Sequence record: NC_014260.1
DNA length: 64,000 bases
Strand: one strand, 5' to 3'
DNA from: Escherichia phage IME08
A program made the translations under genes and the position numbers. The notes below the pieces were generated by a model. It saw only the letters and a list, made by a program, of their open reading frames with translations. It made no database searches and was not told where the DNA came from. Of the stretch, positions 27,138 through 39,447 are shown one piece after another (positions within the stretch are counted from its first letter, which is position 1; each line of letters starts with the position of its first letter).

Positions 27138-27437
27138 TTAGAAAGAACCAGAACCTTTAATTGTGTTCTGGCGACCTTTATTTTCTAATTCAGAGTGGTC
27201 GATTTCATATGCTTGTGCTACGCCAAAGGCCTTTTTAACTTTAGCTAAAGAACCTTTAGATGTAACAATATTAAAGGTATTGCCTTTGGTAAAATCAACC
27301 AAATCGACTTGTACACCCTGTTTACCGAGGCTTGCTACAATAGCATCAACATATTCTTGGTCTAAATTGCCTTGAACTCCAATTTGAAATGCTTTAGGAG
27401 CTTTGGCTTCTGTAATAAATTCTTGATAAGTTTTCAT
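27138..27437 (-). CDS. ipII: Internal head protein (IPII-like) with capsid targeting sequence
   Basis: 99 aa; N-terminal MKTYQEFITEA capsid targeting sequence; position next to denV and e. Confidence 0.7.
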   Translation of the reverse strand: MKTYQEFITEAKAPKAFQIGVQGNLDQEYVDAIVASLGKQGVQVDLVDFTKGNTFNIVTSKGSLAKVKKAFGVAQAYEIDHSELENKGRQNTIKGSGSF

Positions 27438-27461
27438 ATTATTCCTTAAGTTGATAGAAGT

Positions 27462-27491
27462 ATTCTATCACGGATTTAATTAAGCGTAAAT
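27462..27491 (-). promoter_or_regulatory. Weak early-promoter-like element upstream of ipII
   Basis: Minus strand ATTTAC, 18 nt, TAGAAT, then ACTTCTATCAAC. Confidence 0.3.
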
Positions 27492-27896
27492 AGCCTTGCC
27501 ATAATGTTTGTACCAGGTAGGACGCTGTGCAATTTTTTCGTCCAAACGGGCCTGAGATATAGCAATAGAAGCTTCGTGGGGAACATAATCGCCACGGAAT
27601 TCCTGAGGAATATCACTAATGTCCTGGACTGTAGTATCCTTGATATTAAAGCCACGTTTTAAACATTCGGCTATAAGCTCGATTTGACGCTTACGTAAAA
27701 ATTCAAGCTTATCATAAAAGAAAGTAACATGGCCTGTACCAAGGATAAAAGTAGAGCTAATTTTAAAATCACGAACACGTTTACCATTAGCAACATGCTT
27801 ACGAACTGCACCGAAAACACGTGGTAATTCGCGATATTCAGCCATTAAGTGTTGGTCGGCCAATTCAGATACTAAGGTAAGGTTAATACGAGTCAT
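27480..27896 (-). CDS. denV: Endonuclease V (pyrimidine-dimer DNA glycosylase) DenV
   Basis: From [47 protein letters not shown] the sequence is nearly identical to T4 endonuclease V (138 aa). Confidence 0.92.
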
Positions 27897-27956
27897 TTTA
27901 GTGTTCTCCATGTTTGTGTGAGAACACTATATCACAGCTATTGTAAAAGTAAACTG

Positions 27957-28259
27957 TTATTTACCTTTAATTGCTTTAGCTGCTTCGGTAGCCGCTTGCT
28001 GAAGGTCATCCATAGACATACCAAACTTAGAAGCAAAGTTATCAATTTTCTTTTCGACAGAATTCAAAGGCTTGGCCTGTTTACCTTCATTAGCGCCCGG
28101 GAGAGCGAGAATACGCTCTTTGTCAATATAAAGGCTTACAAGTTTCTTACGGTCTTTATCTGGCAAATCATGAAATGAATGGGCCTTTTTATTTACAGCG
28201 GCTTCTAATTTACCTGCGGTTACGCGGGCTTCAGTGATAAATTCATTATAAGTTTTCAT
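27957..28259 (-). CDS. Internal head protein with capsid targeting sequence
   Basis: 100 aa, N-terminal [11 protein letters not shown]; lies between denV and e where T4 carries ipIII. Confidence 0.65.
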
Positions 28260-28740
28260 ATGCTTTCCAAGTACCTGTTTTAAATGTTGAAATCACGCGC
28301 TTAGCACGATTAGGAGTTTGTTTATACCAACGGGATTGAGCCAGGTTAACTGCCGCATCGTCCCAACGTTTCTGTTGGAGCATACGTAAAGAGTTAGTGA
28401 ACCCAGCTACACCTGCTTCACCCATCTGGAAGACCATGTTAATTAAAGCACAACGACGAACTTCGTCCAGTACATCATAAACAGGTTTCAATTTAGGATT
28501 ACGCAGAATAGCTCTACGAGCATTTTCAACCGATCGGTTAAAGAGTTGTTCAGCTTCAGCCATAGTAATACGACCGTTGCAAACCCGGCCCATAAGCTTA
28601 TCAAGTTCGGCACGAGCAACATCTTTTGAAGGGTTTTTGGTAATCAACTGGCCAATCCCAATAGTCCAATAACCTTCGGTGTCTTTATAAAGATTTAAAT
28701 CAAGACCTTCGTCTTGACGTAACATATCAAAAATATCCAT
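28246..28740 (-). CDS. e: Lysozyme (endolysin) e, glycoside hydrolase family 24
   Basis: 164 aa, same length as T4 lysozyme; [35 protein letters not shown]...[32 protein letters not shown]. Confidence 0.93.
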
Positions 28741-28742
28741 AA

Positions 28743-28771
28743 TACCTCCTGAGTATAGGAGGTATTTATAT
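28743..28771 (-). promoter_or_regulatory. SD-sequestering hairpin plus late promoter for gene e
   Basis: 8-bp inverted repeat (UACCUCCU / AGGAGGUA) pairs the SD of e; minus-strand TATAAATA abuts and overlaps the 5' arm. Confidence 0.6.
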
Positions 28772-29220
28772 CAAAAGAGCGAATCTAAAACCTTAAACAT
28801 CGACTTACCCATGACATATTCCCATTGTGGACGTTTAATCAAGGCAAACGCATCGAATTCAGGAATCGTGCGACCGTCAGGGAACGTATGGTAAGCCGTA
28901 CATTTGCAATTCTTGAACTGCTCGTGTTCCACAGGCACCGTATATAAGAACAGATGTAGATTCTTATTGCTTGAATATTTGAACTCACCTAGGTCTTTCA
29001 GGAACGCAGGATCGTATGCTGTGAATCCAATCTCTTCTTCGGTTTCACGCATTGCCGCTTGAATAGGCTCTTCGCCTGGTTCGACATGACCTTTAGGAAT
29101 GTCCCATTTATGACGCATATTCTCTGGATTACGAGAGCCTGTTACACGCCCCATGACCAGTTCTTTATCAACAGTCATGAACAAAATACCTGCCGATAAT
29201 TCCTTAGCTTTCTTACTCAT
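28771..29220 (-). CDS. nudE: Nudix hydrolase NudE
   Basis: Nudix box GHVEPGEEPIQAAMRETEEEIGF; start set at MSKKAKEL (about 150 aa, T4 NudE 151); position next to e. Confidence 0.75.
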   Translation of the reverse strand: MSKKAKELSAGILFMTVDKELVMGRVTGSRNPENMRHKWDIPKGHVEPGEEPIQAAMRETEEEIGFTAYDPAFLKDLGEFKYSSNKNLHLFLYTVPVEHEQFKNCKCTAYHTFPDGRTIPEFDAFALIKRPQWEYVMGKSMFKVLDSLF

Positions 29221-29449
29221 TGTCTCGGTCCCATGATTGTTTAAAGATATCTCGTATAATAATTTCAACACACGTTTCTGTTGACGGACTTTCACTATCA
29301 GATATTTGGACCATATAATCAGAAATAGGTCGGAACATATCCAAGTCGCTTTCTAAATCTTCTTTGATTTTTTCTTCTGACGTTCCGGTATCATAGGAAT
29401 ACAGATAAGAATCACATGACTCAGATTTAATATAAATTGCAATACTCAT
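29213..29449 (-). CDS. Hypothetical acidic protein
   Basis: 78-aa ORF. Confidence 0.4.
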   Translation of the reverse strand: MSIAIYIKSESCDSYLYSYDTGTSEEKIKEDLESDLDMFRPISDYMVQISDSESPSTETCVEIIIRDIFKQSWDRDNE

Positions 29450-38406: not shown

Positions 38407-38603
38407 TATTCACCTTTAGAGATTTTATCCATTACGAAAGAGATTGAACCAATTAAAAATGCCACTACTAAAGAGATTATATTCTCGGAAGTTGAAAGCA
38501 TATCGAGCATGAATCCTGCAAACATACTAAAGCCAAAAGCAGTAACGGCTGCCAGTGCAGTAACATTTCTAATTAATTCACAACGTTTCATTTTATTCTC
38601 CAA
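38406..38603 (-). CDS. Small membrane protein (65 aa)
   Basis: Hydrophobic ORF with SD GGAG, downstream of an early promoter. Confidence 0.4.
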   Translation of the reverse strand: MENKMKRCELIRNVTALAAVTAFGFSMFAGFMLDMLSTSENIISLVVAFLIGSISFVMDKISKGE

Positions 38604-38627
38604 TCACTCATTTGTTTTGATAGGGCT

Positions 38628-38657
38628 ATAGTACCATCACTAGAGCCCGTTGTAAAC
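38628..38657 (-). promoter_or_regulatory. T4-type early promoter
   Basis: Minus strand GTTTAC, 18 nt, TACTAT, then AGCCCTATCAAAACA. Confidence 0.55.
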
Positions 38658-38659
38658 AA

Positions 38660-38932
38660 TTATTTTAAATAAATTGCATACTTTTTATAACCAGCCGTTT
38701 CGTGACGCAGCCCTTTTTCATTAGCAAAACGTTCAATATTGTTAATTTGATTCTGGTCGAGTTCTGAAGTATCAAATACAAAAAAGTTTCGCTTATTGCC
38801 TAAAGTTACATGATTAGTCAAATCGATGTTATAGAGATGATTTATATTATCAATCATAGTCTTAACAGATTTGTTAATTTTTACTTCTTCATTAAGAATA
38901 GATTCAGCGATAAATTCTTGATATGTTTTCAT
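38660..38932 (-). CDS. Internal-protein-like protein with capsid targeting sequence
   Basis: 90 aa, N-terminal MKTYQEFIAES. Confidence 0.55.
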   Translation of the reverse strand: MKTYQEFIAESILNEEVKINKSVKTMIDNINHLYNIDLTNHVTLGNKRNFFVFDTSELDQNQINNIERFANEKGLRHETAGYKKYAIYLK

Positions 38933-38934
38933 TT

Positions 38935-39159
38935 TTATTCAGCGCCAGCGGCTTTCAAAAGTTTTTTAAGATTAGCGGTGCCTTGAGCAGAAAATGTGAC
39001 CTTGCCGTCTTTTTCGCCGATGCTCCCGGTCAATTTAGCGAGCTTATCACTAGGGACTTTTTTAAAATCAGCCAATGAACCGTCAAAGGTTTTTGTAACA
39101 ACCGGCAGTTGGTCTTCGTGTTTTTTAGCTTCGGTAATAAATTCTTGATAAGTTTTCAT
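38935..39159 (-). CDS. Internal-protein-like protein with capsid targeting sequence
   Basis: 74 aa, N-terminal MKTYQEFITEA. Confidence 0.55.
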   Translation of the reverse strand: MKTYQEFITEAKKHEDQLPVVTKTFDGSLADFKKVPSDKLAKLTGSIGEKDGKVTFSAQGTANLKKLLKAAGAE

Positions 39160-39196
39160 TTTGATTTCCGTTTGGTTAGTTTGTTTTGATAGGTCT

Positions 39197-39225
39197 ATAG
39201 TATCATGCCTATAGACCTTGTAAAC
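39197..39225 (-). promoter_or_regulatory. T4-type early promoter (PeSL-like; identical copy of the 30984 element)
   Basis: Minus strand GTTTAC, 17 nt, TACTAT with AGGTCTATAG/CTATAGACCT inverted repeat. Confidence 0.6.
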
Positions 39226-39237
39226 ACCTTTTTTAAA

Positions 39238-39447
39238 TTATTTTAGCCATGAAGAATTTTCAGAGACCCAGCTATCTATATCTGATTGAGGGCCAAAGAA
39301 GTAGGCAACCCCATTAGATAACTCTCCTGAAAGCCAATTTATACCTTTCAGGCTTTCTTTAAATTCTTCAGGAGTACAGGAAACCTCTATTGCCACCGAA
39401 GAGGCGGATTCCATTGCTTCTGTTAAGAATTCATTGTAGGTTTTCAT
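39238..39447 (-). CDS. Internal-protein-like protein with capsid targeting sequence (ipI-locus position)
   Basis: 69 aa, N-terminal [11 protein letters not shown]; directly upstream of 57B where T4 carries ipI. Confidence 0.55.

Follow-up and report, generated by a model that had tools for sequence, protein, structure and literature searches.

The internal proteins (IPs) IPI, IPII and IPIII of phage T4 carry an N-terminal leader of ten residues, the capsid targeting sequence, which is enough to package foreign proteins in T4 (PMC9026906, PMC3012670). Mutagenesis of IPIII assigned positions 4 and 7 of the leader to targeting and positions 8 and 10 to processing by the protease gp21; IPIII mutants also assemble heads more slowly, and another packaged T4 protein, Alt, is an ADP-ribosyltransferase (PMC9026906). 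Here we describe six leader-bearing open reading frames (ORFs) of Escherichia phage IME08 (NC_014260.1), given the working names ipA to ipF and located within positions 27138-39447 of the window, the 64-kb stretch of one strand that was analyzed, and compare them with the T4 genes and other described systems.

IPI inhibits the restriction enzyme GmrSD, and IPIII is needed on strain ECOR17, where it works without its leader from a plasmid (PMC9391042). In 2025, Ip2 and Ip3 were reported to act against two additional variants of GmrSD without cross-protection, the target of Ip2 being the GmrSD of strain ECOR21, alias BrxU, and the authors proposed that IP loci as a whole target the hugely diverse GmrSD family (PMC12373910). 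These loci have been described as encoding diverse defence proteins with only the targeting sequence in common (PMC3012670). As cited in later papers, Repoila et al. (1994) found two highly polymorphic IP loci, ten or more ORFs with the leader, and early-promoter/inverted-repeat elements at their flanks (PMC3012670, PMC12373910, PMC2839356), and more than 30 IP variants had been reported by 2007 (Comeau et al., 2007, cited in PMC2839356). A review expects IP genes to occur at two small loci only (PMC2839356). Composites of promoter and stem-loop, the PeSL cassettes of RB49/phi1-type phages, flank non-essential genes and act as recombination sites for modular shuffling (PMC2839356, PMC4122927). 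Like IPs, the DarA, DarB and Hdf proteins of phage P1 are packaged in the head and reach the host together with the DNA, where they counter restriction ahead of genome exposure, but they are much larger, bear no relation in sequence or architecture to the proteins described here and use another loading mechanism.

Six Genes With a Capsid Targeting Sequence

A scan of ORFs and motifs found MKTY[QN]EF[IL]xE, followed by A or S, at the N-terminus of six ORFs, all on the minus strand (Table 1). Six-frame residue frequencies predict 2.2e-7 such ORFs per window, the motif occurred in none of 200 shuffles of the window, and no seventh motif-bearing ORF was present in the 64 kb, a relaxed pattern included. 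An initial annotation had listed six ORFs with an MKTYQEFITEA-like start; all were recovered, and the positions by which it named them are stop-codon ends. Tyr/Phe at positions 4 and 7, I/L at position 8 and E at position 10 are kept throughout, and the predicted gp21-type sites (ipA to ipF, in the order reported, with an arrow at the cut) are ITE↓A, ITE↓A, LNE↓S plus LTE↓A, IAE↓S, ITE↓A and LTE↓A. Past the first 11-16 residues the six proteins are unrelated to one another, and searches of Pfam and NCBIfam returned nothing above threshold for any of them. The leader motif is the same at the protein level across synonymous codon differences, and purifying selection acts on all six genes, with ratios of nonsynonymous to synonymous substitution (dN/dS) of 0.00-0.19 among orthologs. 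A neighboring vs.8-like ORF (26428-26973) starts MKTFLTGS; it has MKT(F/Y) in common with the leader and lacks the rest of the motif, and thus has no targeting sequence.

The window belongs to a Dhakavirus, one of the JS98-like T-even coliphages, and is 99.1% identical to phage IME341 over 93% of the region (megablast). Its gene order is T4-like: vs.8, denV, e, nudE, a long stretch of small ORFs, e.6, e.8, a tRNA cluster (Arg, Asn, Met), trna.2-4, 57B, 57A, 1 and 3. The two classical intervals, denV-e and trna.4-57B, hold ipB, ipD, ipE and ipF, and the last three form, as first described, a cluster of small leader genes at the ipI locus beside 57B. In contrast to the T4 arrangement, ipA (vs.8-denV) and ipC (e.8-tRNA-Arg) lie outside both intervals. 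Genome comparison confirmed that T4 has three such genes; the window has six, with no ortholog of IPI or IPIII and with five cargoes unrelated in sequence to the T4 proteins. Genes for the gp21 protease, gp22, gp67, gp68, a gp21 inhibitor (inh) and two Alt-like proteins are present in IME341, the head-core loci lying outside the 64-kb window. Since the portions of IME341 beyond the window's span contained no additional leader-bearing ORFs, the six are probably the whole internal-protein set of the genome.

We consider it very likely that these are the T4-type internal-protein genes of a JS98-like phage, a cassette-assembled repertoire whose products are packaged by the leader, cut by gp21 and injected. 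Shared with T4 are the ten-residue leader and its critical residues, the (I/L)xE↓A/S context, the neighborhoods denV-e and trna.4-57B and the kind of early promoter and hairpin found upstream. The earlier proposal that the leader is a T4-type targeting signal removed by the protease gains support at the sequence level, as the residues critical in T4 IPIII are kept and ipB is an ortholog of IPII. By analogy with T4, we infer the packaging, cleavage, injection and targets of the six proteins as follows. Residues 1-10 would bind the scaffolding core during prohead assembly, and gp21 would cut after Glu10 at (I/L)-x-E↓A/S and, in ipC, probably also after Glu15. The mature proteins, of 59-195 amino acids (aa), would then stay in the head with the DNA and enter the host with it.

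It is very improbable that the leader is instead retained for its role in the DNA, linking cassettes for recombination or initiating translation, with some of the ORFs unpackaged or decaying. Genome breakpoints inside leader-coding DNA, the early-type promoters directly upstream of most copies and a frameshifted ipE in one relative (phage C6) would fit such a role. However, it is the amino-acid motif that survives synonymous differences, homologs of about 30% identity with diverged DNA keep it, dN/dS does not exceed 0.19 in any of the six cargo regions, and in T4 the leader alone packages foreign proteins (PMC9026906, PMC3012670).

Several points weigh against the assignment of the six genes as IP genes. 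The presence in virions, cleavage and injection of the six proteins are predicted from the genes, and our literature search found nothing usable on virion proteomics for Dhakavirus or for ipC homologs. Five of the proteins, all except ipB, resemble no protein whose function has been tested. The ipF product is acidic (mature isoelectric point, pI, 4.1), classical IPs being basic. Dhakavirus DNA is predicted to carry arabinosylated 5-hydroxycytosine and not glucosyl-hydroxymethylcytosine, so that the relevant restriction enzymes may differ from those met by T4 (PMC13326640); because GmrSD also cleaves RB69-type arabinosylated DNA (PMC6024577), type IV restriction is still a plausible pressure on this phage. 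Finally, only ipC has a late promoter of its own, and the other five genes depend on read-through or early-type promoters. The missing TATAAATA at these five is no evidence against an IP role, since the proven IPs of T4 are arranged alike: late promoters precede e there, neither ipIII nor ipII has one directly upstream, and each of ipI, ipII and ipIII has an early promoter with hairpin upstream and lacks its own late promoter. The late promoter upstream of e in the window (Table 1) possibly also serves denV and ipA by read-through. A late-promoter scan allowing one mismatch was uninformative (149 matches vs 157 expected).

Table 1. Leader-bearing genes, promoters, hairpins and cassettes in the window (positions in the window; nt, nucleotides; D1, the repeat family of about 90 nt).
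Feature	Position	Strand	Description
ipA	27138..27437	-	99 aa, Ip7 family; predicted mature form 89 aa, pI 9.0; between vs.8 and denV
ipB	27957..28259	-	100 aa; T4 IPII (Ip2) ortholog; start overlaps end of lysozyme gene e
Late promoter upstream of e	28763..28770	-	Perfect TATAAATA; closest late promoter that could drive e and ipB
Early-promoter/hairpin cassette (PeSL-like)	36419..36509	-	D1, partly degenerate, weak hairpin; 3' border of ipC slot; IME341 homology breaks here
Terminator-like hairpin, UUCG loop	36524..36547	-	Directly after ipC stop codon; -14.2 kcal/mol, z -2.7
ipC	36549..37166	-	205 aa, basic (pI 9.6, 35 K+R); between e.8 and tRNA-Arg
ipC late promoter	37195..37202	-	Perfect TATAAATA, 36 nt upstream of start codon
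Terminator-like hairpin and U-run	37207..37234	-	Immediately upstream of ipC late promoter; -19.1 kcal/mol, z -2.2
Early-promoter/hairpin cassette	38585..38675	-	D1; 3' border of ipI-locus array, upstream of trna.4; TTTACA-17-TACTAT (sigma-70-like); hairpin -15.6 kcal/mol
ipD	38660..38932	-	90 aa, Ip9 family
ipE	38935..39159	-	74 aa, 'internal virion protein' family
Early-promoter/hairpin cassette	39154..39244	-	D1, 84% identical to reference copy; between ipF and ipE; TTTACA-16-TACTAT with TG
ipF	39238..39447	-	69 aa; start overlaps 57B stop (ATGA)

Repertoire Variation and Cassette Anatomy

Leader-bearing ORFs were counted in syntenic regions with both ATG and GTG starts allowed. There are six in the window and in IME341, IME281, JS98 and UP19, five in JS10, six plus the frameshifted ipE in C6, and three in T4. 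The description of the repertoire as expanded thus holds relative to T4 and fails within the genus, where each of the six relatives has five or six and a set of this size is ordinary. An apparent shortage of IP genes in JS98, JS10 and UP19 proved to be an artefact of an ATG-only rule, as their ipF starts with GTG.

The combinations of genes differ between Dhakavirus genomes. Beside e, relatives have IPII, IPIII, a 132-aa protein or an 89-aa protein, in combinations that vary from one to the next, and in the slot beside 57B ipF is accompanied by a 97-aa protein or by the pair ipE and ipD. C6 has no ipF there and keeps ipD with the frameshifted ipE; the ipE ortholog is split by the frameshift, and ipF is deleted, at 16883-17160 of that genome, from which it appears that individual IP genes decay in some lineages. 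The diversity is due to cassette replacement and not to rapid sequence change, since dN/dS stays at 0.00-0.19 within orthologs.

Breakpoints of homology with the six relatives fall at two kinds of site. On the 5' side they lie about 23-25 nt into the coding sequence, which is the end of the leader, and on the 3' side they lie at an element of about 90 nt. This element belongs to a repeat family with four copies in the window (30941-31031 and the three cassettes of Table 1), in which a T4-type early promoter is combined with a hairpin that overlaps its -10 element. Three of the copies border ipC, ipD and ipE/ipF, and a related promoter lies 3' of ipB. The copy upstream of trna.4 coincides with the homology breakpoint with JS98 and JS10, and in the copy between ipF and ipE a 10-bp stem covers the -10 element (-17.9 kcal/mol, z -4.6). 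The fourth copy (30941-31031) was found in the hyperplastic region between e and the tRNAs, away from any IP gene, which indicates that early-promoter/hairpin elements are not specific to IP loci. Recombination at leader-coding DNA on the 5' side and at these elements on the 3' side would exchange cassettes and give rise to the differing combinations.

This anatomy is close to that of the polymorphic T-even IP loci (Ip4-Ip13 and later) of Repoila et al. (1994) and Comeau et al. (2007), which, as cited in PMC2839356 and PMC12373910, are variable arrays with the leader alone in common and have early-promoter/inverted-repeat flanks of about 70-90 nt thought to mediate shuffling. The products of ipA, ipD and ipF fall into the Ip7, Ip9 and Ip6 families of that series, the last by the structural comparison given below. 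In contrast to the two loci of the review (PMC2839356), the ipC family resides in an additional slot and is equipped with its own late promoter and terminators. PeSL cassettes also combine a promoter with a stem-loop beside shuffled, non-essential genes; the elements in the window are T-even analogues of these that differ in having T4-type early promoters (GTTTACA...TACTAT) and AT-rich stems over the -10 element instead of GGGG/CCCC stems, and their 5' junction is leader-coding sequence and not a second cassette (PMC2839356, PMC4122927).

A search of IMG/VR with a degenerate DNA pattern for the leader returned at least 120 stretches, many of them from environmental metagenome contigs. Among the matches listed, 144 leader-bearing ORFs fell into 53 unrelated cargo clusters, including a 35-member group of lysine-rich proteins of 161-235 aa and individual proteins reaching about 600 aa. 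The same leader thus seems to be used well beyond the enterobacterial T-evens. Elsewhere in the window, five tandem small ORFs of 65-117 aa (32868-34110, minus strand) have in common a C-terminal W-(V/F/Y)-(S/P)-S-S-x-x-C or a shorter form of it. A separate repeat family, D4, lies at their junctions; their homologs are annotated as hypothetical only (RB69 ORF136c-139c-like), and two have no Pfam match.

The Small Leader Genes

Of the six, ipB alone is homologous to a protein shown to be in T4 heads: its product is 93% identical to T4 IPII over 100 aa (PHROG 7857) and is noted as 'IpII' in the IME341 record. By homology with T4 Ip2, it would block a type IV enzyme of the BrxU/GmrSD type. Apart from ipF, the other small proteins belong to families labelled internal head or virion proteins by annotation alone. 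Relatives of ipA (PHROG 2667 'internal head protein', E 3e-43) were found by tblastn in 282 phage records under the names ip7 or internal head protein, and the gene is present in all six Dhakavirus relatives (dN/dS 0.00-0.05). The ipD product (PHROG 7673, E 3e-56) is noted as 'Ip9' in IME341 and has relatives in 191 phage records (tblastn; dN/dS 0.04-0.06), and ipE (PHROG 8765, E 7e-27) has them in 106 (tblastn), many of which are Klebsiella phages.

The acidic ipF belongs to PHROG 23867, function unknown, and its 27 phage records call it hypothetical or leave it unannotated throughout. In JS98, JS10 and UP19 the ortholog with its GTG start lies in record stretches that bear no annotation. These stretches (JS98 19188-19770, JS10 14126-14706, UP19 13470-13677) are between trna.4, or ipE in UP19, and 57B, and those of JS98 and JS10 also hold a 97-aa leader-bearing ORF. 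An AlphaFold2 (AF2) model of ipF, with a predicted local distance difference test (pLDDT) score of 81, shows a beta-alpha-beta-beta-alpha unit. It matched the predicted structure of the 'Ip6 putative internal head protein' of phage VR7 (Foldseek E 7.5e-4, template modeling, TM, score 0.71), and a leader-free ipF profile matched a family of 78-aa cargoes (E 2e-7, in a small database). On the basis of these two matches, ipF is read as a divergent or remote Ip6-type protein. Foldseek of the model against the Protein Data Bank (PDB) gave nothing significant, with generic small alpha/beta proteins only (best E 0.056) and no IPI* among the matches listed. A common IPI* fold for all small IPs was considered and found unsupported, IPI* being absent from the PDB matches listed for ipF and the link between ipF and Ip6 being the only one to emerge.

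The initial annotation regarded the variable cargoes as candidate anti-defence effectors. The literature on T4 Ip1, Ip2 and Ip3 supports this idea, which has already been published (PMC12373910, PMC9391042, PMC3012670). By analogy with those proteins, ipA, ipD, ipE and ipF are most likely injected inhibitors, which would block other variants of modification-dependent nucleases or other first-response defences. An alternative is that the small cargoes are injected effectors with targets outside GmrSD-type type IV restriction, among other nucleases, abortive infection systems or host physiology. In five of the six cargoes no similarity to Ip1, Ip2 or Ip3 was detected beyond the leader, ipB (Ip2) being the only match; ipF is acidic with a generic fold, the DNA modification predicted for the genus is unlike that of T4 (PMC13326640), and packaged Alt, an ADP-ribosyltransferase, sets a precedent for other activities (PMC9026906). 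However, all three T4 IPs tested so far act on GmrSD variants and the authors extend this to whole IP loci (PMC12373910), and RB69-type arabinosylated DNA is itself a GmrSD substrate (PMC6024577). We regard targets outside GmrSD as rather unlikely for these proteins.

The ipC Family

The basic 205-aa protein near the tRNAs that had been credited with its own late promoter is ipC: tRNA-Arg/Asn/Met adjoin the gene, and a perfect TATAAATA precedes it. This promoter is kept at -36 in JS98, IME281, UP19 and C6, that is, in every Dhakavirus with the gene, and TATAAATA also lies upstream of a Tegunavirus homolog of 36% identity. With the terminator hairpin before the promoter and the UUCG-loop terminator after the stop codon (Table 1), ipC is an autonomous late unit. 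The sequence of the UUCG-loop hairpin also precedes the homolog in phage fHe-Yen9-01.

The family (PHROG 2280, function unknown) has relatives in 137 phage records from several genera, of which Dhakavirus, Tegunavirus and Winklervirus were confirmed by record taxonomy, and it is called hypothetical in every record among the matches listed. Purifying selection on ipC is strong (dN/dS 0.04-0.08). Two cleavage motifs stand in tandem, LNE↓S at residue 10 and LTE↓A at residue 15. The second is a family-wide feature: a (L/I)xE(A/S)G site lies 5-8 residues past the leader, E15-A16 of ipC is invariant in the alignment and in an exhaustive profile search, and relatives of about 30% identity retain both the leader motif and the second site. 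Family members are modular: a linker rich in Ala, Lys and Pro joins helical N and C domains, each of which occurs in two types or more, and swapping of N and C domains is seen within the family. The AF2 model of ipC, of moderate confidence overall, has an N domain with pLDDT 82-88, a disordered linker (residues 73-113) and long C-terminal helices. A sequence search of the PDB was empty and Foldseek of this moderately confident model returned nothing below E 2.7; nor does ipC have homology to any protein shown in T4 heads. Weak matches to TonB, Stm1 and DUF1627 were discarded as arising from the linker.

The ipC slot is polymorphic. JS10 has no ipC-family gene there, and IME341 has a 154-aa leader-bearing gene whose product is 40% identical to protein P0032, itself 28% identical to ipC over its full length. 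We rejected the view of this 154-aa gene as an unrelated cargo, because a profile search showed it to be a distant mosaic relative of the ipC family. The corresponding stretches, 10694-12726 in IME341 and 36510-37640 in the window, are the main difference between IME341 and the window. In IME341 the stretch comprises a diverged cluster of only two tRNAs, Arg and Met, between which lies a gene for a 219-aa endonuclease (a weak Phage_endo_I match), like segB in T4, as well as an extra 139-aa ORF and the different ipC-family allele. Replacement of the IP gene in IME341 may have been carried along by homing-endonuclease co-conversion. In fHe-Yen9-01 (Tegunavirus; 779-2616) three leader-type ORFs stand in a row, encoding a 52-aa protein, an ipC-type protein and one with an N domain of the IME341 154-aa type. 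With both types in tandem there, the two alleles that alternate in the ipC slot of Dhakavirus correspond to tandem paralogs elsewhere.

Basic and modular, with a histone-H1-like Ala/Lys/Pro linker and a late transcription unit to itself, ipC is a cargo of a different sort from the small ones. It more likely resembles IPIII in associating with the DNA, whether or not it also acts as an effector, and a DNA-associated or assembly role appears at least as likely as an anti-defence role. A purely structural version of this holds that ipC, and possibly others of the six, are not anti-defence effectors but structural or DNA-condensing proteins, which would neutralize the charge of the DNA or help to assemble the head, in part like T4 IPIII, the variation between genomes being neutral allele turnover. 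The basic composition (pI 9.6, 35 K+R), the 40-residue linker predicted to be disordered, the long helices of the model, the dedicated late promoter with flanking terminators, and broad conservation across several genera under strong purifying selection all fit such a role, as does the slow head assembly of T4 IPIII mutants (PMC9026906). However, the slot is polymorphic, with a distant mosaic relative in IME341 and none in JS10, from which it follows that ipC is dispensable, and domain swapping is more typical of effectors. The two roles are also not exclusive, as mutants of T4 IPIII show an assembly phenotype and the protein also has a GmrSD target (PMC9026906, PMC12373910). We see the structural account as a possibility worth keeping, though on balance it falls short of probable.

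The same features can be read more boldly. On this second account the ipC family is a widely conserved, modular class of injected proteins at a third IP site by the tRNAs, expressed as an autonomous late unit, with two tandem protease sites, a histone-H1-like linker that rides on the DNA and exchangeable domains that act as effector modules against different host targets. We put this forward tentatively and think it unlikely as a whole; if true, it would contradict the confinement of IP genes to two small loci.

Significance for T-even Phages

The reading of the six as leader-packaged internal proteins, and of what such proteins do, is established knowledge. The additions made here are modest: ipC and ipF had no internal-protein label in any record checked, both ipC and ipA fall outside the classical pair of loci, and the ipC family has a modular, late-transcribed design. 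Both ipC and ipF deserve the label 'candidate internal proteins', ipF having been overlooked altogether in the records of JS98, JS10 and UP19, and the ipC family is the single element at odds with the two-locus picture.

Injected IPs act before phage gene expression and thereby help to decide whether a therapeutic T-even phage survives its first minutes in a wild host. Because the T4 IPs each counter a single variant within a highly diverse family of restriction enzymes, the uncharacterized cargoes described here (Ip7-like, Ip9-like, ipE, the acidic ipF and the modular ipC) may serve as probes for their cognate defences. With their natural leader and cassette junctions, IP cargoes would also be parts that can be transferred between phages.

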